Source of the DNA: a virus
Lineage: Duplodnaviria; Heunggongvirae; Uroviricota; Caudoviricetes
Length of the DNA stretch: 64,000 nt
Reading direction: 5' to 3' (one strand)
IMG/VR virus record: IMGVR_UViG_3300028886_000075
A program made the position numbers and the translations under genes. Every line of letters starts with the position of its first letter. Position 1 is the first letter of the stretch. Below are positions 1 through 42,156 of this stretch, in pieces. The notes below the pieces were generated by a model. The model was not told where the DNA came from. It made no database searches and worked only from the letters and a program-made list of their open reading frames with translations.

Positions 1-123
1 TTAAATGCTTATAAAGATAATGAAGATCGTAAAAATAATCAAGGAAATGGACGTCCTACTGATAAACAATTAGATAAAGTAATTGATTGGTGGAATGACT
101 ATAAAAGTTATAAAATGAAATAA
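1..123 (+). CDS. 3-prime end of an upstream CDS (partial); stop overlaps the next start (TAATG)
   Basis: Open frame 1 runs from the window edge to TAA at 121-123, which overlaps the ATG at 123. Confidence 0.4.
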   Translation, partial: LNAYKDNEDRKNNQGNGRPTDKQLDKVIDWWNDYKSYKMK

Positions 124-1520
124 TGGATCATTTAATAGATAAATATTTAAAGAAGCCTGAAGTAGTTAAAGAACTATTTCAAAAGGAAGTATCAATAAGT
201 CTTAAAGTTGATGGGGCAGCATTTCAGATATCTTATGATAAAGAAAATGATAGCATAACATATCATAAGAGAGGTGGTAGTTCTAAATCTTTAGGTCCTA
301 TTATTGATGAATATACTCAGTTAATGAGAAAGAACATTAATGATGCTATTGATTATTTTGAATCTAAAAAGGAAGTAGTTAAGAAGTATAAATTCTATGC
401 TATTGAAATGTTTAATGATTCATATATTCTTTTAACTGTTATTGATAATGATGACAATATTATTGATGATAGAAACAAGTTAATAGAAATATCAAAATCA
501 TTAGGTATAGATTGTGTTCCTATTTTATTTGAAGGTAAGTTAAATTCAGAACAAATAGAATCATTATTATCTATGATGACATTAGAACCTGAGACTTCTA
601 ATGATGTTTATAAAAAATATTTAACAGATATTTTTGGTAAAGGTGAATATGAAAAGTTCTTAAATGGAGATGAAGTTGAAGGTATAGTATTAACTTGGTC
701 TATTAATGATAAAATACAACAATTTAAAATAATAAATCCTGCATTTAAAACTCGTCATGATAAGGAGATTAAAAATGGTAATGAAGAGTTTAAAAAAGAA
801 ATGGAAGATCTTAGAAAATTATTTGAATTTTTTTATGAATCATTAAATAAATATGGATCTTATCAGTCAGATAATTGGATTGAAAATTTAAATAAGAATT
901 TTATAAATATAGTTAATAAAGAAGATTCAAAATTTAAAGAATTTAATAAGAAAATAAAACCATATTTTAAAGATTTCTTTACATTACAAATTAATAAAGT
1001 TTCAAAAGATATTAAAGAACTTATTGATAATAATGGAGATCAAATGAAATTTTATTATGAAAAATTCTTATTATTATTTAATAAATCAAAGAAACGTAAT
1101 TTTACAATATCTAAAGAATTTCAAAATAAAGTAAATAATTTAATTGAAAAACTTCAATCAAAAAATGAATCACTTAAAACATATACTATACGTAAAATGA
1201 AAAATTTAAATGTTTATATAAAAGAAGAAAAGAAAACAACTGGTTCGGGTTGTGTTAATATGGTTCAAACAATTTTAGATGAATTATCACAAAATCATCC
1301 AAATTGTAAATATGATAAAGAAAAAAATGCATGGGTTGGTAAAGATGCTGATTTATGGAAAGGTGCTGGTCAGTTCTTATATGATTATTTACATGAATTA
1401 GACCAAAAGGATTTTAAAGAAATTATAAATCATTTTGGGTGGGAACAATATATTCCTGACGTAAATGATATACATCCTGCAGAAATATCAATGTGTGTTG
1501 CTTTAGCATTACATTCATAA
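123..1520 (+). CDS. RNA ligase, T4 Rnl1 (RnlA)-like
   Basis: The nucleotidyltransferase motif I region [27 protein letters not shown] parallels T4 Rnl1 [48 protein letters not shown] parallels the Rnl1 EGYV...KIK motifs IV/V. The T4 sequence is recalled from memory. Confidence 0.65.
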   Translation: [465 protein letters not shown]

Positions 1521-1540: not shown

Positions 1541-2281
1541 ATGAAAGACTTAAAACAGTTTATATTAGAATATAAAGCTCGTATAAAAAAATCTTTTGAT
1601 TATAAAACTATTAAACAAACAATAGAATCTTGTAAACCATCATTTTTTGGTAAATCAGTAAGTATGGCAATATTATGGACTCCACAAATTTATTTTAATT
1701 ATGATAAAGGGTGGTCTACAGGTAAACCTAATAAAGAACTTTTTCATGGAAAAGATTATAAAGAAATAACATTAGGTGCATCAACAGTATTATTTATTGA
1801 ATGGTTTGCTAAGAAACATATTTTTAAAGATAATGAATTTACTGGAAGATTAGGTTGTTTTTATCCTAATATTATGAATGATGATGATAAACATAATTGG
1901 GAAGAAGTTGAAAAATATTTAGAATCTAAATATAATGCAAAAACTCAAGATAATTGTGATTATATAAAATTTGATTCTTATGAAGAATTAGAAGAAATTC
2001 TTAAAGATTTAGAAAAAATCATTAATGAATATAATACTAATTATGATAAAAATAATGCAGCATATATTTATTTTGATAAATCTGAAGCTGAACAAAATTC
2101 TTCTGATAAGAAAAAACAATATCAAATATTATCTTGTGAAGAAGAAATTATTAAACTTAATAAACAATTAGAAGACACTAAGAAAGCCGCATCTGCATCA
2201 GATACAGACCTTTCAGTAGTAATTGACATGATTAATGATAAAATTAAATTCTTTAAAAATAAAAAAGATAATATAAAATAA
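1541..2281 (+). CDS. hypothetical protein with capsid-targeting-sequence (CTS)-like N-terminus (MKDLKQFILE)
   Basis: Long ORF with a conserved N-terminal motif shared with about 24 ORFs in the window. Tightly packed. Confidence 0.65.
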   Translation: MKDLKQFILEYKARIKKSFDYKTIKQTIESCKPSFFGKSVSMAILWTPQIYFNYDKGWSTGKPNKELFHGKDYKEITLGASTVLFIEWFAKKHIFKDNEFTGRLGCFYPNIMNDDDKHNWEEVEKYLESKYNAKTQDNCDYIKFDSYEELEEILKDLEKIINEYNTNYDKNNAAYIYFDKSEAEQNSSDKKKQYQILSCEEEIIKLNKQLEDTKKAASASDTDLSVVIDMINDKIKFFKNKKDNIK

Positions 2282-2282
2282 T

Positions 2283-2597
2283 ATGAAAGATATCAAACTT
2301 TATTTGGAAAGTAAATATATAAATGAATCAACTCAAGGAGAAGATTTACATGAAGAAATAGGTCTAGCTCTTAAAGAGTTTGGTAATATCAAAAACGGTT
2401 TTAAGATGGTTAAAATCGATGATATTAAAGATGCGATGTATAAAACAGGATTTGACTTTGTTGAAGAAGATTCATCAGATGAAAAATTAGTATTTGTTGG
2501 TGAATATGTTGATACACAATATGAAGTTACTCTTTATGCAGAAGATCATGTATCAGGGAAATTCAAAATTAAAAATTTCAATGAAATAGAAGTATGA
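2283..2597 (+). CDS. hypothetical protein, CTS-like N-terminus (MKDIKLYLES)
   Basis: ORF whose start lies 2 nt after the upstream stop. Carries the conserved motif. Confidence 0.65.
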   Translation: MKDIKLYLESKYINESTQGEDLHEEIGLALKEFGNIKNGFKMVKIDDIKDAMYKTGFDFVEEDSSDEKLVFVGEYVDTQYEVTLYAEDHVSGKFKIKNFNEIEV

Positions 2598-2905
2598 AAG
2601 ATTTAAATAATTTTATAAATGAATCTATAAGTGATGTTAAGTATGCTATTCGATGGTATTATTATGCAGACGAAAAAATGTCAATATCATATCAGTCATC
2701 ATTAAATAGAGCACAATCATTTGTTCAAAAAATGCAAAAACAAGGTATGAAAATATATGAAATATATGAAATACCTTCAAATAATATAAAGCAATTTAAA
2801 ACTCTTATTAATAAGAAAGGTGATAATGAAAATCAGTTTAAAGAACTTTATAATAATTATTGGAACAAATCAGATATAGAAAAATTTTTAAGTGAAAAAC
2901 AATGA
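2594..2905 (+). CDS. hypothetical protein, CTS-like N-terminus (MKDLNNFINES)
   Basis: ATGA start/stop overlap with the upstream gene. Carries the conserved motif. Confidence 0.65.
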   Translation: MKDLNNFINESISDVKYAIRWYYYADEKMSISYQSSLNRAQSFVQKMQKQGMKIYEIYEIPSNNIKQFKTLINKKGDNENQFKELYNNYWNKSDIEKFLSEKQ

Positions 2906-3195
2906 AAGATATTAATCAATTCATTAATGAAGAAATAAATAAGTATTTCACACAACAAGAAATAGGTGAAATAATGAAAGATATGTGGGCTAAAGATGGT
3001 CAATTTTATAAATTTGTTAAAGATAAAGTTGATTCATTAAAAGCTACTGACATAAATGATTATTTAGATCAATGTTTAGATGATGATAGATGTACAGCAG
3101 AATTTGCAGCATATATAGAAATGGTTATTGGTCGTCATAATTTTAGTTTAGAGCAAGTTCAGAAATTTATAAATACAGAAGATTTAAAAGGATGA
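2902..3195 (+). CDS. hypothetical protein, CTS-like N-terminus (MKDINQFINEE)
   Basis: ATGA overlap with the upstream gene. Carries the conserved motif. Confidence 0.65.
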   Translation: MKDINQFINEEINKYFTQQEIGEIMKDMWAKDGQFYKFVKDKVDSLKATDINDYLDQCLDDDRCTAEFAAYIEMVIGRHNFSLEQVQKFINTEDLKG

Positions 3196-3217
3196 AGAAT
3201 TTATAATTTGTAAACAA

Positions 3218-3769
3218 ATGAAGAACCTAAAAGACATTATATCTGAAAAGTTAATTATAAATAAGAATATAAAGATTAATAAATATAATTATTTTCCAAA
3301 GAATAGAAGAGAACTTACGGAAATTGTTACTAATAAATATAAAGATCTTAAAGATAAAAATGAAGTATTAGATTTAAATGATATTGATGTTTCAAAAATA
3401 AAAGATCTTTCTTATTTATTTGAACTTATATATCCTAAAAAAGTAGATATGAATAACTGGAATGTAAGTAATGTAACAGATATTCATGGGTTATTTTGGA
3501 ATAATCAAATTATTGAAGAAGTTCATATAGAAGACTGGGATGTACGTAATGTAGAAACAGCTTATGGTGCTTTTTATTTTTGTAAAAACATTAAAGAATT
3601 AAATTTAGATAATTGGGAATTCAACAAATGTACAGAATTTGATTTAATGTTCAAAGGATGTAAAGAGTTAGATACTCATTTTACAGATAACTGGAAAATA
3701 ACACAAACAATAACATGTGATAACATGTTTGAAGGTTGTAAATATGCTCCAAAATGGTATAAATTATGA
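3218..3769 (+). CDS. BspA-family (DUF285-type) repeat protein, CTS-like N-terminus MKNLKDIISEKLIINKN
   Basis: Repeats of WNVSNVTDIHGLF / WDVRNVETAYGAF type. First of three tandem paralogs. Confidence 0.7.
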   Translation: MKNLKDIISEKLIINKNIKINKYNYFPKNRRELTEIVTNKYKDLKDKNEVLDLNDIDVSKIKDLSYLFELIYPKKVDMNNWNVSNVTDIHGLFWNNQIIEEVHIEDWDVRNVETAYGAFYFCKNIKELNLDNWEFNKCTEFDLMFKGCKELDTHFTDNWKITQTITCDNMFEGCKYAPKWYKL

Positions 3770-4233
3770 AAAATCTAAAAGACATTATATTAGAAAAATT
3801 AATAATCAATAAAAACACTAAAATTGATAATTATCATTATCATCCTAAAGATAAAGGTGAACTAATGAAATTATTAGATAAACTTATTGAAGAAAGAGGA
3901 TGGGAAGGTAACTTTAATGATATTGATACATCTAATATAACAGATATGTCTATGTTATTTACATTCTCACGTCCAAAGTTTAATGGTGATATATCGGAAT
4001 GGGATGTAAGTAACGTTACCAATATGCGTTTTATGTTCTGTGATACAAAATTCAGTGGCGATATATCAAATTGGGATGTAAGCAATGTTAAATATATGAC
4101 TGAAATGTTTTATGGGTGTAATGATTTTAATTGTAATTTAAATAAATGGGATGTAAGTAAAGTTGAAGATACAAGAGATATGTTTTATGGATGCCCATTA
4201 GAAAAAAATCCACCAAAATGGTATAAAATATAA
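3766..4233 (+). CDS. BspA-family (DUF285-type) repeat protein, CTS-like N-terminus
   Basis: Four or more repeats of GDISxWDVSNVxxMxxMF. ATGA overlap with the upstream paralog. Confidence 0.7.
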   Translation: MKNLKDIILEKLIINKNTKIDNYHYHPKDKGELMKLLDKLIEERGWEGNFNDIDTSNITDMSMLFTFSRPKFNGDISEWDVSNVTNMRFMFCDTKFSGDISNWDVSNVKYMTEMFYGCNDFNCNLNKWDVSKVEDTRDMFYGCPLEKNPPKWYKI

Positions 4234-4245
4234 ATATATTAAACT

Positions 4246-4917
4246 ATGAAAAATCTAAAAGACATCATTTCAGAAAAACTTATAATTAATAAGAATAGTA
4301 AAGTTAAAAAAAATGTTAAGACAACAAATGAACTTAAACAACTTATTAATAAACTTATTGAAGAACGTGGTATAAATGCAGATCTTAATGATATAGACAC
4401 TTCTGAAATAACAGATATGTCATATTTATTTTCTGATTCTAAATTTAATGGAGATATATCTGAATGGAATGTAAGTAATGTAAAAAATATGACATGTATG
4501 TTTAATAATTCTAAATTTAATGGAGATATATCTGAATGGGATGTTAGTAATGTTACTAGAATGAACGGCATGTTTATGCGTAGTAATTTTAATAATAATA
4601 TATCTTATTGGGATGTTAGTAATGTTAAACATATGAGTTTTATGTTTGCTAAAAATAAAAAATTTAATGGAGATATATCTGAATGGGATGTAAGTAATGT
4701 TGAAGACATGGAATGTATGTTTGAATATTCAATTTTTAATGGAGATATATCTAAATGGGATGTAAGTAATGTTACTAATATGAAAGAAATGTTTTATCAT
4801 TCAAAATTTAATGATATAAATGGTGATATCTCTAAATGGAATATTCGTAATGGTGTAAATATGGAACGTATGTTTAAAGGATCACCTATAGAAAATAATC
4901 AACCAAATTTTTATTAA
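4246..4917 (+). CDS. BspA-family (DUF285-type) repeat protein, CTS-like N-terminus
   Basis: Seven repeats of FNGDISEWDVSNVxxMxxMF. Confidence 0.75.
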   Translation: MKNLKDIISEKLIINKNSKVKKNVKTTNELKQLINKLIEERGINADLNDIDTSEITDMSYLFSDSKFNGDISEWNVSNVKNMTCMFNNSKFNGDISEWDVSNVTRMNGMFMRSNFNNNISYWDVSNVKHMSFMFAKNKKFNGDISEWDVSNVEDMECMFEYSIFNGDISKWDVSNVTNMKEMFYHSKFNDINGDISKWNIRNGVNMERMFKGSPIENNQPNFY

Positions 4918-4920
4918 ATA

Positions 4921-4975
4921 TTAAACTATGAAAAACTTATAATTTATAAACAAATGAAGAACCTAAAAGACATCA
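4921..4975. repeat. duplicated 5-prime module (vestigial start 'ttaaactatgaaaaa' plus 37 nt matching 3201-3237 with 1 mismatch)
   Basis: Direct comparison: 3201-3237 'ttataatttgtaaacaaatgaagaacctaaaagacat' against 4938-4974 with one substitution. 4921-4935 matches the 4240-4254 start context. Confidence 0.7.
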
Positions 4976-5457
4976 TATTAGAAAAACTTTCACCATTTAA
5001 TGTTTGGATAATGGTAGGTCTTCCTGGTGCGGGTAAATCAACATATATTAAAGAAAAATTACCTAAATCAATTAATATAGTTAGTCAAGACTATATAAGA
5101 CAAGAATTGGGTATAATAAAAGATGATACTCATAAGGCAATAGGAACCACTGAACAGGAAAAAGAAGTTACAAAAATAAATGATGAAAGAGTTGAAAAAC
5201 TTATTAAAGATAGAAAAGATTTTGTAATTGATAATACAAATGTTAAAGTAGGACGTGTTGAAAATTATTATAATAGGTTAAAGAAAATTGGTGCTAATGT
5301 TAAAATTGTTGTTGTTGATACACCTATAGAAACTTGTATTAAACGTAGAAATGATTGTATACCTGAAAACGTTATAAAACAAATGAATATTGGCATACAA
5401 AATGTTAAACAACAATTCAAAGATAATAAAGATTTAGAAATTGTTCATAATACTTAA
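4954..5457 (+). CDS. P-loop nucleotide/polynucleotide kinase-like protein (T4 Pnk kinase-domain-like), CTS-like N-terminus
   Basis: Walker A GLPGAGKST. VIDNTNVK parallels T4 Pnk ISDTNLN. 167 aa, so there is no phosphatase domain. Shares its first 12 aa with the DUF285 paralogs. Confidence 0.55.
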   Translation: MKNLKDIILEKLSPFNVWIMVGLPGAGKSTYIKEKLPKSINIVSQDYIRQELGIIKDDTHKAIGTTEQEKEVTKINDERVEKLIKDRKDFVIDNTNVKVGRVENYYNRLKKIGANVKIVVVDTPIETCIKRRNDCIPENVIKQMNIGIQNVKQQFKDNKDLEIVHNT

Positions 5458-5475: not shown

Positions 5476-5516
5476 AAAAAATGCTTAGAAATATTTAAAT
5501 ATTTCTAAGCATTTAC
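5476..5516. terminator. perfect 30-nt palindrome tgcttagaaatattt/aaatatttctaagca flanked by A and T runs (bidirectional terminator-like)
   Basis: Read directly from the sequence. Confidence 0.6.
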
Positions 5517-5565: not shown

Positions 5566-5874
5566 ATGACAAAGGCAAACAATTATTTCAATCTGAATGA
5601 GTTTAAGGCAGGTAAGACATGTACAACAAAGCTTGGTAATCCTGCAAAGTTCATTACAATGTGCGGAGATGGTAAAATGCTTGTTCAGGTGACTCCACGT
5701 TATCGTATTATTGAAGGTCCTACAAAGTACGCAGTAGGTGGATGTACTCCATATACTTGTAAATATAATGTAAATGGAAAGAAATACAATGGCACAGATA
5801 CAGAGTTTGACCTAGTTATGGAGGCACCAAAAATGCCACGAGATGAGAAGGGTCGTTTCGTAAAGAAGGGTTAA
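5566..5874 (+). CDS. small Lys/Gly-rich protein, putatively highly expressed
   Basis: ORF bracketed by two strong hairpins. Its codon usage (AAG, GGT, GTG) resembles the capsid and SPFH genes rather than the neighbouring genes. Confidence 0.6.
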   Translation: MTKANNYFNLNEFKAGKTCTTKLGNPAKFITMCGDGKMLVQVTPRYRIIEGPTKYAVGGCTPYTCKYNVNGKKYNGTDTEFDLVMEAPKMPRDEKGRFVKKG

Positions 5875-6781: not shown

Positions 6782-7282
6782 ATGGCTGATAATTTTAGAA
6801 ATAAACAATGGTTTAAAAATATGTCTCAAAATCGTAAAGATGAGATATGTAAGAAGTTTGATATTAATGAAAAGACTTTAAAGAAATGTGGAAGAGAAAC
6901 AGATGATGGTAGAATAGTAATTGATATTCTTCGTATAGATAAGCTTCTTCATACACCTGAATGTTGGGATGAATGTTATAATAATCTTAAATCTATAAAT
7001 ATTAATAATATTCATACTAATAATTTAGATGAAATGATAGTTAATTTGCAATACATTTATATATGTATGCATCCAGAATGTTCATTTCTAAAATATAAAT
7101 CATCAGTTCATAATGATTTGTTAACTAAACAGTTTTATGATAATTTTATATATTGGTATGAATATATGTCTGAAACAAATAAATCAGATATAGATCATAT
7201 GAAATATTGTTGTTATCAAATATATAATTGTAGTAAATATTTATTTGAATCCGATTTAAAATTAATTAAGAAAAATAAGTAA
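6782..7282 (+). CDS. hypothetical Cys-rich protein
   Basis: 166-aa ORF. Its stop overlaps the next start. Confidence 0.55.
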   Translation: MADNFRNKQWFKNMSQNRKDEICKKFDINEKTLKKCGRETDDGRIVIDILRIDKLLHTPECWDECYNNLKSININNIHTNNLDEMIVNLQYIYICMHPECSFLKYKSSVHNDLLTKQFYDNFIYWYEYMSETNKSDIDHMKYCCYQIYNCSKYLFESDLKLIKKNK

Positions 7283-7560
7283 TGAGTATAATGGCAAGTA
7301 AGGAGTTAAAAACTCCACAAAATTTTAATGAAATACAAAATTTAATTAATGAGTATAACTATATGCAAGACCTCATTAAGAAAGCTGAAGATGGTAGAAA
7401 AATTTTATTAGGATTTGTTTATACTAATTCTTGTGGTACTGCCGGTAAAAATCATGAAACATTGGATTATACTTGGGGTAGAGTGTTTGCAGATTGTCTT
7501 AAAGAAAGATGTAAATTTATAGAAAATTTAATATCTAAAAATTTATCTAAAAATATTTAA
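7282..7560 (+). CDS. hypothetical protein
   Basis: 92-aa ORF with an overlapping stop/start. Confidence 0.5.
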   Translation: MSIMASKELKTPQNFNEIQNLINEYNYMQDLIKKAEDGRKILLGFVYTNSCGTAGKNHETLDYTWGRVFADCLKERCKFIENLISKNLSKNI

Positions 7561-7606
7561 TTTTTTTAATATTTACTATTTTAATAAAAATTATAAATTT
7601 TAAATA

Positions 7607-8164
7607 ATGGCTTGGTATACAATATTATTTATAACAGTTTTTAGTTTCTTTTTTATTAAATTGTTTATATCATTATTTGTTGGTGATATAGATTTGGATG
7701 TAGATTTAGATGGAGATTCAGATGTTGATTCTTCCAGTGTATTTTCTTTTAAAGGTATATTACATTTCTTAATGGGATTTAGTGCATTTCTTTTTGGTAA
7801 AGCACATATGTCAAATATAACTATTGAAAATGGATATGTACAATTTACATTATTTGACTATGTATTTGCGATTTTATCAGGAATAATTTTGGTTGTTATA
7901 TTATATTTTGCATATAAAGTTGCACTGAAAGCAAATTGTGATCCTAAACAACCTGAAGATTTAATTAATAATTCAAAAGGAAAGATCTATTTAAATATGG
8001 GTAATGGAAAATATTCTGTAGAAGCGTCAACACATGCAGGAACAATTAATGTTGAAGCATATTCTACAAATAAAGATTTAAAATCTGGAGATGAAGTTTT
8101 TTTAAAAAAGAATAATGATAGAATTATAATTGATTATGATACTGAAGGATCTACTATGGAATAA
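7607..8164 (+). CDS. membrane protein (3 predicted TM segments, acidic DxD repeats)
   Basis: Hydrophobic stretches WYTILFITVFSFFFIKLFISLFV, FLMGFSAFLF and AILSGIILVVILYFAY. Confidence 0.55.
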   Translation: MAWYTILFITVFSFFFIKLFISLFVGDIDLDVDLDGDSDVDSSSVFSFKGILHFLMGFSAFLFGKAHMSNITIENGYVQFTLFDYVFAILSGIILVVILYFAYKVALKANCDPKQPEDLINNSKGKIYLNMGNGKYSVEASTHAGTINVEAYSTNKDLKSGDEVFLKKNNDRIIIDYDTEGSTME

Positions 8165-8404
8165 AACAGTTAAGAATACTGCATTAGGAATATGGATATT
8201 TACTACATCATTAGTTGTTGGTAAGGCATTATATGATTACACTATATATTCTAATTTGAAATATATTAAAAAGAAGTTAAATAACGTAACATTTGATGAA
8301 ACATAACAATAATATATTTAATTAAGTATAAAATTACACAATATGATAAAGTATATTAATAACATTTTTAATTATTAACGTTTTTAATTTAAAATTTTTA
8401 ACAA

Positions 8405-10498
8405 ATGAGTGAACAAATTATTACTATGGCAATGATCGCCGGTTTTGTATTACTTGGCATTATTACAATTTGGGTAGTTCTTTCTAGATACCGTCGTTCT
8501 GCGCCTGATGAACTTTTGGTTGTATTCGGTAAATCTGGAAAGATTAAGGTTACCGACGAAAATGGTAAGGAACAAACAATTGTAGTTCCGTCTAAGATTA
8601 TTCAAGGTGGTGGTGCTTTTGTTTGGCCAATCATTCAAGATTACAAAAAGATGTCAATGGCACCTATTCAGATTAAGGTTACTGTTGATGGTATTGATTC
8701 TCAAGCTATTCCAATGCACTTGCCTGTTGTATTGACAACTGCTATTAGTAGGGATAAGGAAATTCAACAGAATGCTGCAACACGTTTCTTGAGTGCTAAG
8801 CCTGAGGAAATTCAGAAGCAAGTATCTGAAATTCTTGTTGGTGAAACACGTGCTATTATGGCAACAATGCTTATTGAGGAAATTAATGCTGAACGTGATA
8901 AGTTCTTGAATAAGGTTCGTGGTTCTCTTGAACAGGAGTTGGCTAAGGTCGGTTATGATGTTACTAATATTAACATTTCAGAAATTACTGATGATGCCAA
9001 TTATATTAAGAACTTAGGACAGAAGGCTGCTACAAAGGCACAAGCTAATGCTGAGGCTGATATTGCTGAACAGAGAAAACAAGGTAATGTAAAGATTGCT
9101 AATACTAAAAAGGAAGAGGAAATTCAGGTTGCTGCTGCAACTAAGGAGCAGGAAGTAACTGTTAACCAGACACGACAGGAGCAGGAAGTACAAGTTGCTG
9201 AGATTCAACGAGATAAGGAAATTAAACTTGCTGAGGCTGCTAAGGAACGTGAGTCAGGTATTGCTACTCAGGAAGCAGAGAAGGTTGCTAATATTGCTGA
9301 AGCTCAGGCTGATGCTGAATCTAAGAAAGCTGAAGCTATGGCAAAACAGGTAGCTAATGTATCTAATGCTGAGGCTGATGCTGAATCTAAGAAAGCTGAA
9401 GCTGATGCTCGTAAGGTTGCTGCTGTTGCTGCAAGAATGGCTGAAGCTGAGTCTGCTAAAGCAAAATCTGAATCTGAACAGAAGAAAGCTGTTGCTACTG
9501 CTGAGGCTGATGCTGAGGCTACTGAAAATGAACAGGAAGCAAAGAAGCAAACTCGTATTGCACAAGCTAATCAGTTAAAGGAAGCAGAAATTATCAAGGC
9601 TACACAGGAAAAGGAATCTAGGGCTGCTGAATATGAATCTCAAAAGAGACAAAAGAAAGCAGAACAGGACAAGAAGGCAGGTGTTGCTGAACAAATGGCA
9701 AAGATTGAGGTAGCTCAAGCTGCTGCTAAAGCAGGACAGGCAGAAGCTGATTCTATTAAAGTTTCTGAATCTGCTAAGGTTGAGGCTGAGATGTCTGTTG
9801 AAAAGATTCGTCAAGATCGTCAAATGGAAGTTAACAAGGCTGCTGCTAAGGCTGCTGAAGAAAAGTTAAATGCTACTGAGATTATTCCTGCACAGAAAGC
9901 TAAAGAGAAGGCAGTTATTGAAGCTGAAGCTGTGAAAATGAAGGCAGAACTTGAGGCTGAAGCTATTAAGGCAAAGATTTTACGTGAAGCTGAGGCTGAT
10001 GCCGAAAAGATTCGTTTGGCTAAGAATGCTGAGGCTGAAGGTACAAGAAATATTTTGATGGCTGAGGCTGAAGGTAAGAAGGCTTCATTGCTTGCTGAAG
10101 CTGAGGCTGAACAACAGAAAGCATTAGCTCCTGCTATGGCTCTTGAACGAATGGTTGCTGCTGTTGGTGGAAATCCTGATCTTGTTGTACAGTATAAGAT
10201 GGTTGATCAATATAAGGGTATTGCTGAGGCTCAGGCTAAGGTACTTGAACACATTCAGATGGGTAATGTTACCGTTTACGGTGATAAGAACACTGGTGCT
10301 GACTTCGCTAAGAGCTTCGTACAGAACTTTGCACCTGCTCTTGATATGATTAACAATGGAGTTAAGGGACAATTCTCTGAATTGTTTGGTAAGAAGAAGG
10401 ATGAACTTCCACAACCTGAACAACAGATTAATGAGGATAAGAAACCAAAGAGAAATTCTAAAAAGACAGATGATACTGCCTTCGATGAGGTAAAGTAA
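8405..10498 (+). CDS. SPFH/band-7 (flotillin/YqiK-like) membrane protein with long Ala/Glu/Lys coiled-coil
   Basis: N-terminal TM segment, then SAPDELLVVFGKSGK...IIQGGGAFVWPIIQDYKKMSMAPIQI, which is typical of flotillin-like SPFH proteins. About 450 aa of AEADAESKKAEA-type heptad repeats. Host-optimal codons. Confidence 0.75.
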   Translation: MSEQIITMAMIAGFVLLGIITIWVVLSRYRRSAPDELLVVFGKSGKIKVTDENGKEQTIVVPSKIIQGGGAFVWPIIQDYKKMSMAPIQIKVTVDGIDSQAIPMHLPVVLTTAISRDKEIQQNAATRFLSAKPEEIQKQVSEILVGETRAIMATMLIEEINAERDKFLNKVRGSLEQELAKVGYDVTNINISEITDDANYIKNLGQKAATKAQANAEADIAEQRKQGNVKIANTKKEEEIQVAAATKEQEVTVNQTRQEQEVQVAEIQRDKEIKLAEAAKERESGIATQEAEKVANIAEAQADAESKKAEAMAKQVANVSNAEADAESKKAEADARKVAAVAARMAEAESAKAKSESEQKKAVATAEADAEATENEQEAKKQTRIAQANQLKEAEIIKATQEKESRAAEYESQKRQKKAEQDKKAGVAEQMAKIEVAQAAAKAGQAEADSIKVSESAKVEAEMSVEKIRQDRQMEVNKAAAKAAEEKLNATEIIPAQKAKEKAVIEAEAVKMKAELEAEAIKAKILREAEADAEKIRLAKNAEAEGTRNILMAEAEGKKASLLAEAEAEQQKALAPAMALERMVAAVGGNPDLVVQYKMVDQYKGIAEAQAKVLEHIQMGNVTVYGDKNTGADFAKSFVQNFAPALDMINNGVKGQFSELFGKKKDELPQPEQQINEDKKPKRNSKKTDDTAFDEVK

Positions 10499-13751: not shown

Positions 13752-16700
13752 ATGGCAAAAAAACAAGAAACTTATAATGGTAATATTACTGAGTTTATTG
13801 ACTGGGTTAATGGTGTAGATTCAATAACTGGACGTAATAAAACAAATAATTTACAAGTATCTGGAGGAGCTATTAGAAAACTTATTCAGAATCATTTAAA
13901 AAATCCTATAACCATGATTGAAGATAAAGAAAATGGTTTATATAGAATATTCTCAAGTGAAGCTGCATATAAAGCTTGGGAAAGTGATCCGGATACATAT
14001 TCAAATTTAGAATTGTTTAATTTTGTTAGACCAAGTGATTATACAATTGAAACTAATTTGAATATTGATAATAGATATCTTATTTCAGGTTTGCATGATC
14101 AATCAATTACAAAATTAGTATATGATTGGGTTGTACAAAATGATAAAGGTACTTTTGAAGACAATATTGTTGCAACATATACAATAACCACAGCTGCAGG
14201 AGCAGTTACTAAATTCTCACAAAACTATGATACTTCTAGTAAACATGTTGAATTAGATGTTTATGATTACTTAGATGTTGGTCAGACTTCAGTAAGAATT
14301 GATTTACGTGCAGTATCAACAGGTGCTACTCGTAACTATACAATATATATTACTCAACTTATATTAGAATTAGAATCTGATTTTCCATATTATAGTGAAC
14401 ATACTCCTGGTGTTGCTATTACATATTCGTGGAATTTAAAAAGAAATAATGCAGATAATGCATCATCATTATATGTATATGTAGATGGTATTGAAGTAAA
14501 CAAACAAGATATACAATTAGGATCTGCTAATGTAAGTGGTACAGTTACTATATTAACAGATAATTTAGCTGGTAGTTTTATACCACCATTAAATGATGTT
14601 ACATCTGACGGTAGAGTTTCTCATGTATTACAGATGTGTGTAAAAACAAAATATAATAACTTTGATTTTACAAGTAACATTCTATATTATACATTTGAAA
14701 TTAAATCATCAGATAGTGGTATTAAAAACTACTTTATAAATAATTTCTTTAATTTCTCTGCAGGTACAAAGATATTCCCAATATCTTTTGAAGGATTATA
14801 TTTATCTGCTACACAATATATGCCAGTTAGTATGAATTGGGCATATTATACTGATATGTTAGCATCAGAAAATACTGTACAAATTAATTGGAAATTATAT
14901 GAAAATGATGAAGGAACAGATCTTGCTACAATGGAAGCTTCTAAAGGATATAAACCTGACCCATTAGAATTCATACCTGCTACATATTCTAAAGAAGTAG
15001 AATTTAGTCCTGCAACAGCAACAATTAAATTAGTTGGTGAATATACATCTCAAGATGGACAAACTCGCAAATTATGTTCTATACCTATGTATATTGCAAA
15101 ATCTGCATTAAATATGGTTGAAACATCTGGTTATGATTATAAATTATCTGCTTATGGTAGATCAAATGCTAGTCAAACTAAATCAATATGGAATGGAGAA
15201 AAGGCAGTTTCTAATTTAGATAATATTACAACAAAATTTACAAATATTAAATGGGATGATAATTCAGGATGGTTTGAACATTCTTTTAGAACATCTGGAG
15301 ATAATTCATATTGTGAAATATCATATAACCCATTTAAAGGTAACCCTTCAGCTGGTCGTACAATTGAAGTTGAATTTGAATCTGAAAAAATATCTGACCC
15401 ATCAGATATATTGATAACAATTGGTGTACCTTATGATCCTGCAGATCCTGAACATACAAGAGGTCCTCGTATTGAAATTGGTGCTAATAAGGCAACATTA
15501 TATGATAAGGCAGGTAATGATTGTATACATACAAACTATAAAGCAAATGAAAGAGTAAAAATTGCATTTATAATTAATCCTGAAAATAATACTTCAGATT
15601 CAGGTTTGATTTATATTGTTTCTGATGGTGTTTTGGAACGTGGTGCTATGGCTGCAGGTCATGACTTTACAACACAAAACGGTAAAATTATAATCGGTAA
15701 ATCTGCATCAGGTGTTAAATTCTATAACTTCCGTACATATTTACGTAATATTGGTTATAGTGATGAATACAATAATTTTATTTATGATAATGACGAAAAA
15801 TTAAAATTAATCAATAATAATGCAGTTGTAGATAGTAGTACACAACAAATTGATTATCAATTATGTTGTAGAAAACTTGATACAATATTAATTTCAGGTA
15901 ACCTTTCACAAATTCTTAAAGGTGAAACTGGTAAAGAAGAATCAGAAATAGATGTAACAATTGAACGTTTCTGTCCATTTGATACAACAAAAAACTTTAA
16001 AGTTGAAGGATGTAGAATTAGAAAACATGGTCAATCAACATTGAACTATCCTATCACATCAATGAAATTCTGGTTAAATAAATCAGTTAACCCTGAAAAA
16101 ACTCCTAAATTTACTTGTGAAGGACAAGCATATCTTGGTTTAAATAAAAACCGTTATAAGATGAAAGACAATTCTGTTCCAAGTAATAAGTTTATTCTTC
16201 AAGCTAACTACGCTGATTCATCAGGTGTACATAACGGAAGTATACTTCGTGCAATTAATGATAGTTGGTTTAATGCAGATATAAATGGAGAATTTAAATT
16301 AAGAACAGAACCACAGTTATTCTCAACAAATCAAACTGCTACATTAAATGATGGAACAGTAATGGGTAAAAATTCAGAAGGTCAAAACTGGGATGATTGT
16401 ACAAAGAATCCATCTACAGGTCAAACATATACATTCCCATATCAAATAAGAAATGCTCCTGATTCATTCCCTTGTGTAGTATTCTATAAAGATACAGAAG
16501 GTACAAATAAGACAACATTCTTAGGCCAGTATGTATTTATGGAAGACAAGAAATCTGATTTTACATTTGGTGAAAGATCTATTTATAAAGCAGATCCTAA
16601 AGATCCATTCTGTATGTATACTGAAAATAAAGATTATGATACAGATGATAATAAGATTTGGGATAACGATAATGTATTAAGAATTGAAGTACTTAATATT

Positions 16701-19700
16701 AATACATTCTTCACATCTTATATGAGTGATCATGATGAAAATAACATAAGTTTTGATGCTAGAATTCCTCAATCACAAGGTTTAGATATATATCGTTGGG
16801 AACAAGATTTCGAAGTTATATATCCTGACCCAGATGATTTAGCTGGTAAAGTTGAAAAAGGAACAGATAAATGGGGTACAAATTCTAAATTTAAGAGAAC
16901 AACAGATCCATTTGTTAATTGGTTTAAATGGTTAGTAAGTACTTATAATAATCATGAAAAATTCCGTACTGAAGCACCTGCACATTTAGATTTATATAAG
17001 ATGGCAGCATATTATATAACAATGCTTCGTCTTGGTCTTGTTGACTCTGGTGAACGTAACGTTCAAATTAAGACATATGATGGTGTTCACTTCCATTATG
17101 AACCTTGGGATATGGATATTGCGTTAGGTAATAAGAACACTGGTGGTATTGCATATGATCCTCCAATTAATCGTAATACTAAATTAGGTGCAGAAGAATG
17201 GGCTATATCTGGTAAATCTACAGTAACATCTAACTGGTTATGGGATGCATTAGAAGCGTGGCCATTATTTATGAATACAATTGTTCCTACAACTGCGGAA
17301 GCATTATCAAAGGCAGGATTCAATTATAATTCATTAACAAAAATGTTTGATGAAGAATATTCTGGTAGATGGTGTGAAATAATATATAATGAATCTGGTC
17401 ACTATAAATATATTGAAAATGGTGGTAGTGAACGTCAATACCTTGATTGGTTACAAGGTTCTCGTATTAATCACAGACACTGGTGGTTATCTACATCAAT
17501 GGACTATTATGATGCAAGATGGACTTGTGGAGATTTCAAATCTCACTTTATATATATTGCTGCAGGTCACACACAAACAACTGCAGGTACAGATATTATT
17601 ACAGTAACTCCATCTAATCCAACATTCTTAACATTAACACAAAATGATGGTGAAGTAAATACAGATATTGAAGTTAGTCAAGAAGGTGATTCAACGGGAG
17701 ATAATACTGAACAAGTAGTTGTTGCTAAAGAATGTTCTAGAACAAATCCTGCAACATTTGATATTTCAACTTTATCATTCTCAAATAAAGTACCTACAAA
17801 GATTTTGGGTGCAACTTATATTGAAACATTAGATATAGCTTGTCTTGCTAATCGTATCGACCTTTTGGATATTAAAGGTGCATATTCTGAAGTAAATGGC
17901 GCTTCTATTAAAACAATTAATGTTGGTAATACTATAACAAAAGATCCTGATTATAATGATAATTATCACTATATCGGTGGTGTTAATACAACATATAATT
18001 TACGTTTACAAGTAAGCCCACAAAATGATAACCTTGAAAACTTAAATACACTTAATATTAGAGGTCAATTAGGTAAACGTGGTTCTAACCCATCAGTTAA
18101 CCCTAACTCATTATTCCGTGGTGGTAATGAAAAGACTGGTCGTCCACAGATTAAGAACTTATATGCTATGGGTGCTCATTTTAACTATTTCCAAAGTTCT
18201 AAATCTGGTAATGATTTTGAAAATCTTGAATTACCTGCAATAAACTATGATGGTGTTAAAGATGCATATGAAAATCTTTTACCACTTTCTACTATGGGTA
18301 GTATTGAAATGCATAACAGTTCTTGGCAAAACATATCATTCTGGAATGGTGTAGTTGACCCTGTAACTAATAAGATTAAATATGAAAGATATAATATTAA
18401 TGGTAATTATGATTATTATGTACCTACATCTATATCATCAATAACATTTACAGGTAGTACAGCAAACTCTGCAAAAGCTAAAGATTTTATATTTAATTGG
18501 ATTAATGGTATTATTTATGAAACAACATTAGCACATGAAGGAGAAACTGAAGAACAAATACAAGCCGCTGTCGATGCTGCACTTGCAGAAAAAACATTAA
18601 TACTTAAGGATGTTAATTGGCAGAAAGAAACATGTGGTAATGATTTTGCTTTATCATATGATGACTTAATATTATTATCTAAACTTAATAATGGTGAAAA
18701 TAATAATGGTGGTACAACATATAAAGGTTATGTTATATTAACTGGTGGTGCAAAACTCACTCCAATTGAATTAACAAGATTACAAATATTATTTGGTGAA
18801 TCTGCATTTGAACGTACTGGTTCTGGTTTAATTATTGACCAAGAAAATGAAGATGTTCAAATTAATCTTGCTGGAGATGCATACATTGGAGATAATGGAG
18901 AATTCTATTTAAGAGAAGTACCAACTAATGCAACCAATAAAGGTAAAGGTGGTATTGCTGTACTTAATGCTACTAAGTTCAGATTACAAGAAATAACCAA
19001 TACTGATTATAACTGGTATGTTAAATCAGAATTTGGTTCTGATGATCCAACAAGTTCATATAAATCATGTAGAATATCTGTAGGACAAGATGGTAGAACA
19101 TATTTGACAGCATCTGAAAGTCAATATGGAAATTATCGTGTTAATGTAGGTGTTACTATTGGGCAAGAACAAAAATGGATAGTAATTAATATTATTGGAA
19201 CAACATATCCTGATAGTTTTGAAATTAATGCTAATCCAATTAATGGTCAATATCTTTATAATGTAGATGAAGGTTATATCTTTGGTAGTGGTTCTTCATC
19301 ATCTGAATTCTATATCACACCTAATAAAGAATATGATGGTACTATATATGATGTAGTTTGGACATTAAAACGTGATGCCGATAATGTAACTCTTATTAAT
19401 AAAGAATCATATAAGATTTATGAGCAAACTCGTTCATTAGAAGAAGTTATGTTAGCAGAAGCTGATTCTTATTTAAAGAAATGCTATAATGTTAATGGTA
19501 CTGTATCTAATCCATTAGATTCACCTTATGGAATAATGTTAAAGGCAATTAATTCACCTGTTACATCAGATATGTATTACTATACATTAATTGTAGATAT
19601 TATTTATGTATCTGGTAAAACAATTTCTACATCAAAGAAAATTATCATAATGGATGATCAACAACCAATTATGACAAATGGTACATTGTTATATCAATTA

Positions 19701-20318
19701 ATTAATACATTCTATAAAGCTAATCATATTACTACAGAATATCCTGAAGGTAAATCATTAGAACCAAGAGTATATAGATATCAATTATTAGATGTTGGTG
19801 ATACAATTGATTTTACAACTTCATTTATAAATCAATCAACTGGTCAAGAAACTCAGATACAACATATGATAACGGATTATTCTAATGAAACAATATTAAA
19901 GTATTTGATTAATGTTAAAAATGTTATATTTGATGGTCTTTCATTAACTAATATATATACTAATTCATCTTCAAATACAGAGATTAATCAATTCGATTTT
20001 AGTTATATGGTTAATCTTGAAACTGTTTCAATAGTAAATTGTGATCAATTAACTGCGAATATTGATTTATCTAATAACAATAAATTAGTTTCTGTAGATG
20101 CAAGAGGAACTACAATTAATATTATTGTACCTGAAAATTGTACAACATTAACTACATATAAACTAGGTACGCCAACAAGTGTAACATTACATGGATGTAC
20201 TGGGTTAGTTCCTGCTAATGTATCGACTGATGATTCAGATAATATTAATTATATTGATATTGTTAATTGTGGTAACAATCAATCATTCTCAATATTTGGA
20301 AATGTAATGGGAGTATAA
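13752..20318 (+). CDS. giant virion-associated protein (2188 aa) with C-terminal leucine-rich-repeat-like repeats
   Basis: Uninterrupted 6.5-kb ORF inside the structural module. The C-terminus carries LRR-like repeats (LSLTNIYTN..LETVSIVNCDQLTANIDLSNNNKLVSV). A central region is rich in His/Trp/Asp motifs (HFHYEPWDMD, HRHWWLS). Confidence 0.6.
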   Translation: MAKKQETYNGNITEFIDWVNGVDSITGRNKTNNLQVSGGAIRKLIQNHLKNPITMIEDKENGLYRIFSSEAAYKAWESDPDTYSNLELFNFVRPSDYTIETNLNIDNRYLISGLHDQSITKLVYDWVVQNDKGTFEDNIVATYTITTAAGAVTKFSQNYDTSSKHVELDVYDYLDVGQTSVRIDLRAVSTGATRNYTIYITQLILELESDFPYYSEHTPGVAITYSWNLKRNNADNASSLYVYVDGIEVNKQDIQLGSANVSGTVTILTDNLAGSFIPPLNDVTSDGRVSHVLQMCVKTKYNNFDFTSNILYYTFEIKSSDSGIKNYFINNFFNFSAGTKIFPISFEGLYLSATQYMPVSMNWAYYTDMLASENTVQINWKLYENDEGTDLATMEASKGYKPDPLEFIPATYSKEVEFSPATATIKLVGEYTSQDGQTRKLCSIPMYIAKSALNMVETSGYDYKLSAYGRSNASQTKSIWNGEKAVSNLDNITTKFTNIKWDDNSGWFEHSFRTSGDNSYCEISYNPFKGNPSAGRTIEVEFESEKISDPSDILITIGVPYDPADPEHTRGPRIEIGANKATLYDKAGNDCIHTNYKANERVKIAFIINPENNTSDSGLIYIVSDGVLERGAMAAGHDFTTQNGKIIIGKSASGVKFYNFRTYLRNIGYSDEYNNFIYDNDEKLKLINNNAVVDSSTQQIDYQLCCRKLDTILISGNLSQILKGETGKEESEIDVTIERFCPFDTTKNFKVEGCRIRKHGQSTLNYPITSMKFWLNKSVNPEKTPKFTCEGQAYLGLNKNRYKMKDNSVPSNKFILQANYADSSGVHNGSILRAINDSWFNADINGEFKLRTEPQLFSTNQTATLNDGTVMGKNSEGQNWDDCTKNPSTGQTYTFPYQIRNAPDSFPCVVFYKDTEGTNKTTFLGQYVFMEDKKSDFTFGERSIYKADPKDPFCMYTENKDYDTDDNKIWDNDNVLRIEVLNINTFFTSYMSDHDENNISFDARIPQSQGLDIYRWEQDFEVIYPDPDDLAGKVEKGTDKWGTNSKFKRTTDPFVNWFKWLVSTYNNHEKFRTEAPAHLDLYKMAAYYITMLRLGLVDSGERNVQIKTYDGVHFHYEPWDMDIALGNKNTGGIAYDPPINRNTKLGAEEWAISGKSTVTSNWLWDALEAWPLFMNTIVPTTAEALSKAGFNYNSLTKMFDEEYSGRWCEIIYNESGHYKYIENGGSERQYLDWLQGSRINHRHWWLSTSMDYYDARWTCGDFKSHFIYIAAGHTQTTAGTDIITVTPSNPTFLTLTQNDGEVNTDIEVSQEGDSTGDNTEQVVVAKECSRTNPATFDISTLSFSNKVPTKILGATYIETLDIACLANRIDLLDIKGAYSEVNGASIKTINVGNTITKDPDYNDNYHYIGGVNTTYNLRLQVSPQNDNLENLNTLNIRGQLGKRGSNPSVNPNSLFRGGNEKTGRPQIKNLYAMGAHFNYFQSSKSGNDFENLELPAINYDGVKDAYENLLPLSTMGSIEMHNSSWQNISFWNGVVDPVTNKIKYERYNINGNYDYYVPTSISSITFTGSTANSAKAKDFIFNWINGIIYETTLAHEGETEEQIQAAVDAALAEKTLILKDVNWQKETCGNDFALSYDDLILLSKLNNGENNNGGTTYKGYVILTGGAKLTPIELTRLQILFGESAFERTGSGLIIDQENEDVQINLAGDAYIGDNGEFYLREVPTNATNKGKGGIAVLNATKFRLQEITNTDYNWYVKSEFGSDDPTSSYKSCRISVGQDGRTYLTASESQYGNYRVNVGVTIGQEQKWIVINIIGTTYPDSFEINANPINGQYLYNVDEGYIFGSGSSSSEFYITPNKEYDGTIYDVVWTLKRDADNVTLINKESYKIYEQTRSLEEVMLAEADSYLKKCYNVNGTVSNPLDSPYGIMLKAINSPVTSDMYYYTLIVDIIYVSGKTISTSKKIIIMDDQQPIMTNGTLLYQLINTFYKANHITTEYPEGKSLEPRVYRYQLLDVGDTIDFTTSFINQSTGQETQIQHMITDYSNETILKYLINVKNVIFDGLSLTNIYTNSSSNTEINQFDFSYMVNLETVSIVNCDQLTANIDLSNNNKLVSVDARGTTINIIVPENCTTLTTYKLGTPTSVTLHGCTGLVPANVSTDDSDNINYIDIVNCGNNQSFSIFGNVMGV

Positions 20319-39102: not shown

Positions 39103-39333
39103 ATGAAAAATATCGGAGATAAAATTAACGAAGGACTAAATGTTTCAAAATCTTTTGTCTTAAATATGAAAGAACTTGATTACGATAAATTAATTGATTT
39201 TATTAAAGATATGCAATCTAAAAACGAAGACTTTATTGAATTACAAGTTGATTCATCTCGTAAATGGATTGGATATTCATTTTCAAAAGGAAAAACTGAT
39301 AATATTAGATACAATAAAACTGAATTAAATTAA
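39103..39333 (+). CDS. hypothetical protein, CTS-like N-terminus (MKNIGDKINEG)
   Basis: ORF with a weaker copy of the conserved N-terminal motif. Confidence 0.55.
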   Translation: MKNIGDKINEGLNVSKSFVLNMKELDYDKLIDFIKDMQSKNEDFIELQVDSSRKWIGYSFSKGKTDNIRYNKTELN

Positions 39334-39334
39334 T

Positions 39335-39529
39335 ATGAAACAAATAAAAGAATTTATTAATGAATCAAACGAATGGAATCCATCATTAGATTCTCATAAA
39401 GTTGCATATAATAACTTTGTTAAATGGTATGACAAATGTTTAAAACATTTAAATAAAGAAGAAATATTAGATTTACTTAATGGAGCAATTAAAGAAATTG
39501 AAGATGATTCATTAGATATCATAAAATAA
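39335..39529 (+). CDS. hypothetical protein, CTS-like N-terminus (MKQIKEFINES)
   Basis: Conserved N-terminal motif. Confidence 0.6.
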   Translation: MKQIKEFINESNEWNPSLDSHKVAYNNFVKWYDKCLKHLNKEEILDLLNGAIKEIEDDSLDIIK

Positions 39530-39547
39530 ATATATTGAAACTAATTA

Positions 39548-40069
39548 ATGAAATCAATAACTCAATATATATATGAAGCTGTAGAAAATTATAGATTGAA
39601 TTCTGTTGAAGTTACATATAATGTTCAACCAGAAGAATTAATATTACAAGCACCTGAAACATTCCAAGAGTCAGATATCCAACAATACATAGACGATATG
39701 TGGCTCAATCAACTTCCATCTTCTCAAGACTATTCTGAAAAATTCTTTGGAAAAAATAATGATAATATATCTGATGCATATTTTGAATATGATTCATTTG
39801 AACATCTTTCAGTAGAACCTAAAGATTATATTGAATGGAATTCAAAATATGATGTTAAGAAAAGTGGAGATGACATTACATTAGAATACTTTAAAATAAC
39901 AAATCTTAAATATCATATTAATTTTGATAGATTTGATATGGTTGATGTTGATGATGATAATGTAGAAGAAAAACTTAAAGATATATTTAGAACCACAGAA
40001 TCTAATAAAGAAAATGAATATCCTATAGAAATTCAATTTGATGAAGATTCACTTGAATATAGAAAATAA
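39548..40069 (+). CDS. hypothetical acidic protein, CTS-like N-terminus (MKSITQYIYEA)
   Basis: Conserved N-terminal motif. Confidence 0.6.
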   Translation: MKSITQYIYEAVENYRLNSVEVTYNVQPEELILQAPETFQESDIQQYIDDMWLNQLPSSQDYSEKFFGKNNDNISDAYFEYDSFEHLSVEPKDYIEWNSKYDVKKSGDDITLEYFKITNLKYHINFDRFDMVDVDDDNVEEKLKDIFRTTESNKENEYPIEIQFDEDSLEYRK

Positions 40070-40129
40070 ATAAAACAAAATAAAGATATTATATAGAGGC
40101 ATAATACCAAATACATCTATGATTATCTT

Positions 40130-40339
40130 TTGATTACAAAACCTCGATCTGACTGTAATAAACATATTATTAAACGTGAACATTACTGTAAAAAAGACGG
40201 TGAATGGAAACCTAAGAAAAAGTTTAATAGTGAAGAAGAAGCCAATACATGGATAACAAAATATAAAATGTACAAATATACTGCATATATATGTAAAGTC
40301 TGTGGAAAATGGCATATAGGTATTAAAAAGAAAACATAA
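40130..40339 (+). CDS. small zinc-ribbon-like protein
   Basis: CNKH...HYCKK...CKVCGKWH, 69 aa. Confidence 0.45.
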   Translation: MITKPRSDCNKHIIKREHYCKKDGEWKPKKKFNSEEEANTWITKYKMYKYTAYICKVCGKWHIGIKKKT

Positions 40340-40359
40340 AAACATTAAAAAATCAATAT

Positions 40360-40677: not shown

Positions 40678-40701
40678 AAATATAAAATATAATCACATAT
40701 T

Positions 40702-41196: not shown

Positions 41197-41205
41197 TTTA
41201 TAATT

Positions 41206-41487: not shown

Positions 41488-41508
41488 AAATATATGAGTT
41501 AAACAAAT

Positions 41509-42154: not shown

Positions 42155-42156
42155 AT

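Follow-up and report, generated by a model that had tools for sequence, protein, structure and literature searches.

We propose, with moderate confidence, that a string of small gene cassettes in the DNA of an uncultivated tailed phage (IMG/VR record IMGVR_UViG_3300028886_000075) is headed by a short leader of the capsid-targeting type, and that the DNA encoding this leader provides the recombination homology through which the cassettes are turned over. The whole stretch analysed, referred to as the window, is 64 kb long with a G+C content of 26.6%, and the genes on which the argument turns are an array of three DUF285 genes and the Pnk-like kinase gene that follows it. As read from the sequences, the evidence consists of direct repeats, of scars and mosaic junctions, of cassettes that some relatives have and others lack, and of a leader-bounded segment of 93% identity.

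Repeats and scars around the DUF285 array

Genes 3218, 3766, 4246 and 4954 all start with MKNLKDII[S/L]EKL, in agreement with the 12-17 shared first codons reported in the initial annotation of this region. The three DUF285 genes go on with IINKN, giving 17 common codons with one S/L difference, and the kinase shares 12. Cassette a (3218-3769, +) and cassette c (4246-4917, +) both carry the leader MKNLKDIISEKLIINKN and cassette b (3766-4233, +) carries MKNLKDIILEKLIINKN. In the order a, b, c they match PF03382 at 65.3, 109.3 and 217.6 bits (cut-off 25; E = 5e-18, 1e-31 and 3.5e-65), and the PARCEL repeat TIGR02167 is matched at 66 bits (cut-off 30). The start of cassette b overlaps the stop of cassette a (ATGA), its best relatives are 72-75% identical, and cassette c contains internal 72-nt repeats that lie in tandem at 4436-4813.

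The identity between genes 3218 and 4954 does extend upstream of the coding sequence as had been claimed, with 3201-3237 and 4937-4973 agreeing over 37 nt with one mismatch. The direct repeat is longer than first noted, spanning 46 nt from 3192-3237 (+) to its right copy at 4928-4973 (+) with 43/46 positions identical, a level matched by 0 of 100 shuffles, and a repeat search places a 68-nt pair here (family D6; 3182-3249 and 4918-4985, 85% identity, spacing 1736 nt). The two 46-nt copies flank the DUF285 array and each begins with a dead start, the left copy consisting of a scar and the first 20 nt of the leader. Both dead starts read ATG AAR AAY TTA TAA (MKNL-stop), followed by TTTRTAAACAA and then the true ATG. 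The one preceding the kinase had been recognised as a vestige of the 4246-type start, and 4918-4935 (ATATTAAACTATGAAAAA) indeed equals 4236-4253 exactly over 18 nt; the one preceding gene 3218, ATG AAG AAT TTA TAA at 3192, had been missed.

The right scar (4918-4953, +) consists of the 4246-type intergenic DNA and start with a 25-nt internal deletion, followed by a decayed linker. Positions 4918-4944 equal 4236-4247 joined to 4273-4287 at 27/27 nt, the single 25-nt deletion lying between the repeats ATGAAAAA and CAGAAAAA, and the degenerate 'LIINKN' linker codons that come next match at 14/18, a level reached at only 11 of 63,982 window positions, among them 4936 itself, the compared linker at 4279 and the linker of gene 3218. 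The left scar (3192-3217, +), in which MKNL-stop is followed by TTTGTAAACAA, is likewise a collapsed, dead leader, and as it shows the same derived spacer changes as the right scar, both scars are copies of one event. Its ATG occupies the position of a functional leader start in three related loci (L005, L014 and L023). To the left it is overlapped by the TGA stop of gene 2902 (g2902; 2902-3195, +; MKDINQFINE...), the conserved left flank of the variable slot, whose homologues are 85-86% identical at the nucleotide level in L004, L005, L010 and L014 and 93% identical in L023, and whose end ...GATTTAAAAGG-ATGAAGAA is kept in L004, L014 and L023.

A search for the scar spacer elsewhere turned up only the two known copies, both when the window was scanned for the 20-nt form (up to 3 mismatches allowed) and when 28 loci were scanned for TTTRTAAACAAATGA; the spacer therefore does not recur as a regulatory element. 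For the last 11 nt, TTTRTAAACAA, a short-word BLAST comparison of the scars with all loci was too noisy to reveal an origin, and a 13-nt match, found by eye at the 3′ end of a 153-aa gene of L001 (…FINK-stop), is suggestive only. Sigma-70-like sites around the scars occur at the chance level (60 found against 60.7 expected), and hairpins in the region lie only after the kinase and after 5566-5874, with a terminator-like hairpin of 16-bp stem (5479-5514, +) closing the gene string. A dead start acting as a functional upstream open reading frame (ORF) was considered and set aside, as it finds no support beyond the preserved ATGA coupling to gene 2902.

The shared identity is not confined to the positions that conservation of the peptide alone would keep, because rare codons are common to the genes and 26 nt of non-coding DNA upstream are identical. 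All four genes use CTA (3.1% of the genome's Leu codons) and GAC (9.8% of Asp), and AAG AAC is common to 3218 and 4954. Codon identity among the four leaders, at 7/10 against 5.95 expected from codon bias, is barely above expectation because that bias is extreme.

The leader of the kinase gene

Gene 4954 (4954-5457, +) encodes a Pnk-like P-loop kinase (AAA_33, E = 1e-19, 71.8 bits; P-loop GLPGAGKS) that lies in one gene string with an RNA ligase. Its nearest solved chains in the PDB are Pnkp1 (1.6e-5) and T4 Pnk (1e-3), the NCBIfam Pnkp and PSTK models match it far under their cut-offs, and public assemblies have no exact copy of the protein on record. The body of the kinase is unrelated to the DUF285 proteins, as had been stated, with AAA_33/Pnk-like against PF03382 assignments and no mutual BLAST match between the leaderless bodies of 3218 and the kinase.

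The initial annotation went further and saw in the tag a possible mechanism for capturing new injected cargo. That the kinase is such newly captured cargo is not supported by its orthologues, as an in-register leader is present on 6/6 distinct kinase orthologues (MKSILTYIKESLNIFEKQNPFNVW on two of them, then MKSIITYLFEKQNPFNAW, MKNIIKFILEKLLPFNVW, MKHILSFILEKLNPFNVW and MKSLITYIFEKQNPFNVW); the kinase thus did not enter by acquiring a tag, and the replacement affected codons 2-7 and the upstream DNA only. The leader of the window kinase is MKNLKDIILEKLSPFNVW. Its codons 2-7 and the 26 nt upstream match gene 3218, and it is exactly there that it differs from the six orthologues, to which its body is 71-75% identical at the nucleotide level. 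Codons 8-12 (ATA TTA GAA AAA CTT) are those of the native kinase leader of L009, and over its first 33 nt the gene is identical to the leader of another gene, unrelated and 168 aa long, in a 435-kb phage. As the sequences read, a neighbouring variant has overwritten the kinase's own ancestral leader up to a junction that falls between codon 7 and codon 8, and from codon 8 onwards the sequence is the family's own. The wider suggestion of cassette shuffling with the tag as recombination substrate is supported for recombination at the tag-coding 5′ end and for turnover, and is not supported for the kinase as new cargo.

Turnover of cassettes among related phages

For comparison, 36 loci of related AT-rich phages were collected from IMG/VR and JGI metagenomes by scanning for leader DNA and for kinase relatives, and the interval between g2902 and the kinase was compared only in those relatives in which it could be read. 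This interval contains no cassette in L004, only the collapsed-leader scar ATGAAGAACCTTAAAGACATTAAATTAATAAGAA; one 140-aa cassette in L005; that 140-aa cassette and a DUF285 gene in L023; at least two cassettes in L014, one of 153 aa and then another; and three DUF285 genes in the window. L019 (contig Ga0247608_10000913) has, at another locus, a gene that matches gene 3218 at 93.2% identity over 526 nt; the backbone of this contig is less similar to that of the window, at 80.0% for the RNA ligase and 84.7% for g2902. The 93.2% segment begins at the leader ATG of gene 3218, includes the stop codon and breaks off some 14 codons into the next leader, and both of its flanks are unrelated. Judged from these boundaries, it is what a swap would be expected to leave if each of two consecutive leaders took one crossover, and cassette a appears to have been exchanged recently between phages.

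The relatives were also inspected for other cargo behind the same module, as had been suggested, and the MKNLKDII leader was found to front 12 unrelated protein bodies that, once the first 22 residues are removed, have no mutual match better than E = 0.08 and whose Pfam assignments differ or are lacking. A codon-unbiased scan of IMG/VR for the leader peptide gives Leu4 as CTA in 7 of 12 genes and Asp6 as GAT in 9 of 12. As Asp6 varies in this way, the AAGAAC...GAC form is a haplotype and not a selected sequence, and the synonymous drift together with the persistence of the rare CTA points to a leader that is one DNA lineage spread across many bodies, not one fixed by selection.

Further junctions of this kind were observed at gene starts elsewhere. 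About 70 nt are common to the RNA ligase gene of L004 and a DUF285 gene of that locus (3340-3470 against 4100-4230). This span runs from the 3′ end of the DUF285 gene that lies before, across the intergenic DNA, into the first codons MEHL, and leaves the DUF285 gene with the hybrid leader MEHLNNFITE; by its sequence this is a second, independent recombination at gene starts. On the reverse strand of L019, at about 1530-1570, a tandem 18-nt duplication (ATGGTATAAATTATGAAA twice) lies at the junction of a DUF285 gene and the next leader and leaves another dead start. In L013, a truncated solo leader, MKNLKDIIVKKYKR-stop, is found at 1090-1134 of a 1.1-kb contig immediately before another gene start, and may be another collapsed cassette.

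The RNA ligase ORF of the window (123-1520) holds an internal leader, RKMKNLNVYIKEEKKTTGSGCV, at about residue 357, and its C-terminal 108 or so residues form a separate leader-bearing gene in relatives, located before or after the kinase (L006 5672-5998; L010 5612-5944; L004 6528-6878). In L002 (1187-2653) and L005 the ligase is fused instead to another leader-plus-linker protein, NIKSFGEYFIDEKLKINKDTKIN. Gene fusion and fission appear to occur at leaders.

The 148-kb relative L001 encodes a full-length RecA (2333-3388, -; PF00154, E = 1e-125). The same locus encodes a ClpX-like ATPase with a ClpX zinc finger (7167-8348, +).

The leader family and its resemblance to capsid-targeting sequences

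The pattern M-K-x-[LI]-x-x-[FYI]-[IL]-x-E starts about 24 window genes, or about a quarter of them, which cluster at 1541-5457 and 39103-45840 with one more at 62168. The first cluster opens, 5′ of the DUF285 array, with three more leader genes (1541-2905, +; MKDLKQFILE, MKDIKLYLES and MKDLNNFINE); the second consists of 14 consecutive leader-bearing genes (39103-45840, +), of which the two scanned against Pfam (42558-43496 and 43509-44396) gave no match; and the isolated gene (62168-63001, +; MKNLGDLIKE) encodes a protein with a phosphoribosyltransferase-like C-terminus. The window and the collected loci together yield 87 distinct leaders, of which 84 have L or I at position 4, 82 have Y, I or F at position 7 and 80 have I at position 8; Glu at position 10 is invariant, and this is not independent evidence because the search pattern required it. 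The linker KL[IRV]INK[ND]xK[IV] follows directly after the leader in 30 of the 87, and several leaders carry a duplicated EKLxIN unit. Codons vary freely between leader variants and the peptide pattern remains constant, which indicates selection at the protein level.

The T4 capsid targeting sequence (CTS) is MKTYQEFIAE (PMC8442874), in which targeting to the prohead core depends on residues 4 and 7, and gp21 cleavage on residues 8 and 10 (PMC9026906). The window leaders are conserved at these same functional positions and agree with the T4 peptide at 1, 2, 4, 7, 8 and 10, and their pattern also fits the [LI]-x-E specificity of gp21-type proteases. In Sphingomonas phage PAU (JQ362498), 13 head-module genes start with MKT[LI]xxL[YF]E and lie between the head-completion, portal, protease and capsid genes (gp131-133, gp142-146, gp149-150 and gp152-154), with gp152 labelled as scaffolding and gp142 and gp154 as internal capsid protein in the record. 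On the strength of the T4 CTS positions, the presence of an S77 protease in the window and the PAU labels, we read the leader as a probable T4-type capsid-targeting propeptide, and by the same analogy the proteins that bear it would be packaged, cleaved and injected.

The protease in question is a gp21-type Peptidase_S77 prohead protease (20490-22193, +; PF03420 at 39.6 bits, cut-off 27; phrog_207), presumed to be the enzyme that cuts the leader after Glu10, and its own N-terminus reads MTNKRCLIYE/T. The Gp23-type major capsid protein (22301-24058; PF07068, 109.5 bits) reads ...AIHEIHE/S close to its N-terminus. The C-terminal half of the protease ORF is repeat-rich and scaffold-like and is fused to the S77 part, so that the whole looks like a protease-scaffold fusion. 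This half contains eight tandem 36-nt repeats at 21474-21761 that encode VQNW[IV][VT]EEFAPE and show 93% matches at a period of 108, with an acidic KDKS-rich stretch N-terminal to them, and the homologue in phage PTm1 is annotated as 'prohead core scaffolding protein and protease'.

A model for cassette exchange at leaders

We propose that small cassettes, each headed by about 10 leader codons, form a hyperplastic string in region 1541-5457. The leader would dock the protein to the prohead core, the S77 protease would cut after Glu10, and the mature protein would enter the next host with the DNA. As the leader coding sequence recurs before every cassette, it supplies 20-50 nt of homology, and general homologous or short-homology recombination may act between its copies, in keeping with the RecA encoded by the close relative L001. 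Crossovers in two successive leaders would swap a cassette; crossovers between leaders of one genome would delete or duplicate cassettes and leave collapsed-leader scars; and a short conversion tract could overwrite the leader of one gene with the variant of its neighbour, as we suggest for the Pnk-like kinase, whose leader would have been overwritten from the upstream DNA through codon 7. The 46-nt repeat around the array may be the trace of a single-crossover insertion or of an unequal exchange, and recombination between its two copies would delete the DUF285 array and lead to an arrangement like that of L004. Which recombination enzymes act, and in what direction and order the events took place, we can only infer.

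The comparison of loci shows the turnover of an arsenal at the resolution of single junctions, with cassettes swapped, duplicated, deleted and re-headed through leader homology. If the leader is a packaging signal, a one-line sequence rule lists the host-injected proteins of an uncultivated huge-phage clade, and this list would be a catalogue of candidate anti-defence and takeover factors, enzymes included, that goes beyond what homology can recognise. As a tentative extension, the T4-like leader may be the common 'plug' of a rapidly exchanged arsenal throughout this clade, with tens of genes per genome delivering pre-made proteins with the DNA, a kinase of RNA-repair type among them, and with the leader DNA doubling as the site of exchange within and between phages in an integron-like logic that needs no dedicated integrase.

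Alternative explanations

Several points weigh against our proposal. The leader is carried by enzymes, namely the Pnk-like kinase and the phosphoribosyltransferase-like protein, whose T4 counterparts act in the cytoplasm. The leader pattern was not found when 25-42 kb around the capsid genes were sampled in PTm1, Lak-C1 and LR756500, with the Lak ORFs fragmentary in this search because Lak uses a different genetic code. The labels of the PAU proteins are record annotations, the relatives are all metagenomic assemblies, and the haplotype arguments rest on few nucleotides.

The first two of these points, together with the ClpX encoded by a relative, would also fit a leader that is real and recombining and is not capsid-targeting, acting instead as another sorting or stability signal (for a membrane, a compartment or ClpXP) or, at the level of RNA, as a translation-initiation region; enzymes in such numbers are unexpected inside capsids. 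We nevertheless regard this as unlikely, given that codons vary freely under a constant peptide pattern, that the pattern falls on the four positions with a function in the T4 CTS and fits the gp21-type [LI]-x-E, that an S77 protease is present, and that genes of the PAU head module labelled as scaffolding or internal capsid protein carry the leader.

A poorer candidate is a dedicated, site-specific system of the integron-like or homing-like kind, with the leader or the scar recognised by a specialised recombinase or nuclease. The 10 ORFs scanned between 123 and 5874 have no Pfam match to a recombinase, integrase or nuclease, and short-repeat general recombination is documented in T4-type phages, for example in the mini-circles of PeSL (early promoter and stem-loop) cassettes (PMC2839356). 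The clustering of junctions in the first 8-9 nt (ATGAARAA) and around leader codons 7-14, and the unusually well kept rare-codon core CTAAAAGA, are what such a system would produce, yet junction positions vary from case to case and synonymous sites drift.

Ordinary descent, in which the DUF285 genes inherited their leader as tandem duplicates and the kinase came to resemble them through selection on the peptide motif, with no recombination at the tag, is more doubtful still. It accommodates the leaders of the same family on all kinase orthologues and the codon identity of 7/10 near the 5.95 expected, and fails to account for an identity that reaches 26 nt into non-coding DNA and includes a shared dead start, for the rare CTA and GAC in all four genes, for a kinase that departs from six distinct orthologues precisely where it agrees with its neighbours (codons 2-7), and for the leader-bounded 93% segment in a backbone of 80-85%. 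An assembly artefact, in which the repeat led the assembler to join the DNA of different strains into a false mosaic, is the least credible of these explanations even though the window and all relatives are apparently metagenomic assemblies and repeats are classic mis-join points, as the longest exact common run is just 26 nt, the copies differ at 3 of 46 positions, each side of the repeat has a consistent context of its own, and analogous scars and mosaics occur in independent assemblies from other samples.

Other features of the window

Megablast of window positions 1-25000 against 50,697 phage records returned zero matches. In its capsid protein the window shares 29-36% identity with Sphingomonas phage PAU, Tenacibaculum phages PTm1 and pT24, Lak megaphages and several metagenomic phages of 460-640 kb, and because of these relatives we place the window in a huge myophage of the wider T4 superfamily. 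Further window genes encode a tail sheath protein (1031 aa), a helicase and a topoisomerase II, and just 5′ of the protease and capsid genes lies a 2188-aa ORF (13752-20318) with no Pfam match at E <= 0.01.

A membrane protein without a Pfam match (7607-8164), NfeD-like by eye only, is followed by an SPFH/Band-7 (flotillin-like) protein of 697 aa (8405-10498) that contains a long repeat region rich in Ala, Glu and Lys; such a pair is unusual in a phage. Two large BspA-type leucine-rich-repeat proteins (LRR_5; 45858-47234 and 48844-51147) have no leader, and together with the DUF285 genes they amount to a heavy investment of this phage in repeat proteins of the BspA/PARCEL kind.

Comparison with known systems

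Among the systems compared here, PAU has a capsid protein 33.5% identical to that of the window; both are related huge myophages and in both the L-x-E site is equally far from the N-terminus. The PAU leader is one residue shorter and of different sequence, and, unlike the leader genes of the window, which are located outside the head module, those of PAU are placed between the portal, protease and capsid genes. In phiKZ and SPN3US, cleavage takes place after a small residue-x-Glu motif and the propeptides are longer and dissimilar, and we know of no description of a common 10-residue leader or of leader-mediated cassette exchange in these phages. In such phiKZ-like giants a gp21-related protease does process many head-internal proteins, and these are ejected into the host (PMC5694885, PMC7411985). 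The phrase 'capsid targeting' was not found in the searched literature on jumbo and huge phages, and Petrov et al. 2010 makes no mention of internal proteins (IPs) or of a CTS.

The closest parallel to the leader itself is that of T4, in which IPI, IPII, IPIII and Alt, like the window genes, are unrelated small proteins that share only an N-terminal leader of about 10 residues. T4 and the window also have in common a gp21-type protease, a gp23-type capsid protein and the location of these genes in loci that vary between related phages, and the T-even IP loci are described as polymorphic or variable between phages (Mullaney & Black 1996; Repoila et al. 1994, via PMC9026906, PMC3012670 and PMC12373910). 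In contrast to the T4 CTS, the window leader has a different sequence, often with an extra KLIINKNxK linker; in place of the 3-4 tagged genes of T4 there are tens per genome; the cargo includes a Pnk-like kinase, a phosphoribosyltransferase-like protein and DUF285 repeat proteins, unlike that of the T4 IPs; and, unlike in the T-even IP loci, the crossovers here are mapped inside the leader-coding sequence.

With regard to the mode of exchange, the window is most readily set beside the PeSL cassettes of phages RB49 and phi1, for which PeSL-mediated excision and insertion have been shown (Arbiol et al. 2010, PMC2839356; Comeau et al. 2014, PMC4122927) and for which the proposed route is recombination between motifs, possibly by way of mini-circles. 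In both systems small ORFan cassettes lie between copies of one short conserved motif, cassettes are present or absent among relatives, and a single chimeric motif remains at the empty site, here in L004. The PeSL, however, is a non-coding early promoter and stem-loop, whereas the motif of the window consists of the first codons of a gene, with no conspicuous promoter or terminator signal around it. The CTS and IP-locus principle of T4 and the existence of phage arms-race loci are already known; what is new is a distant huge-phage lineage in which the leader is longer and of another sequence, many more genes are tagged, the cargo is enzyme-like and crossovers lie within the leader DNA. The principle of the T-even IP loci and of PeSL is thereby extended to that lineage and to the coding sequence itself.

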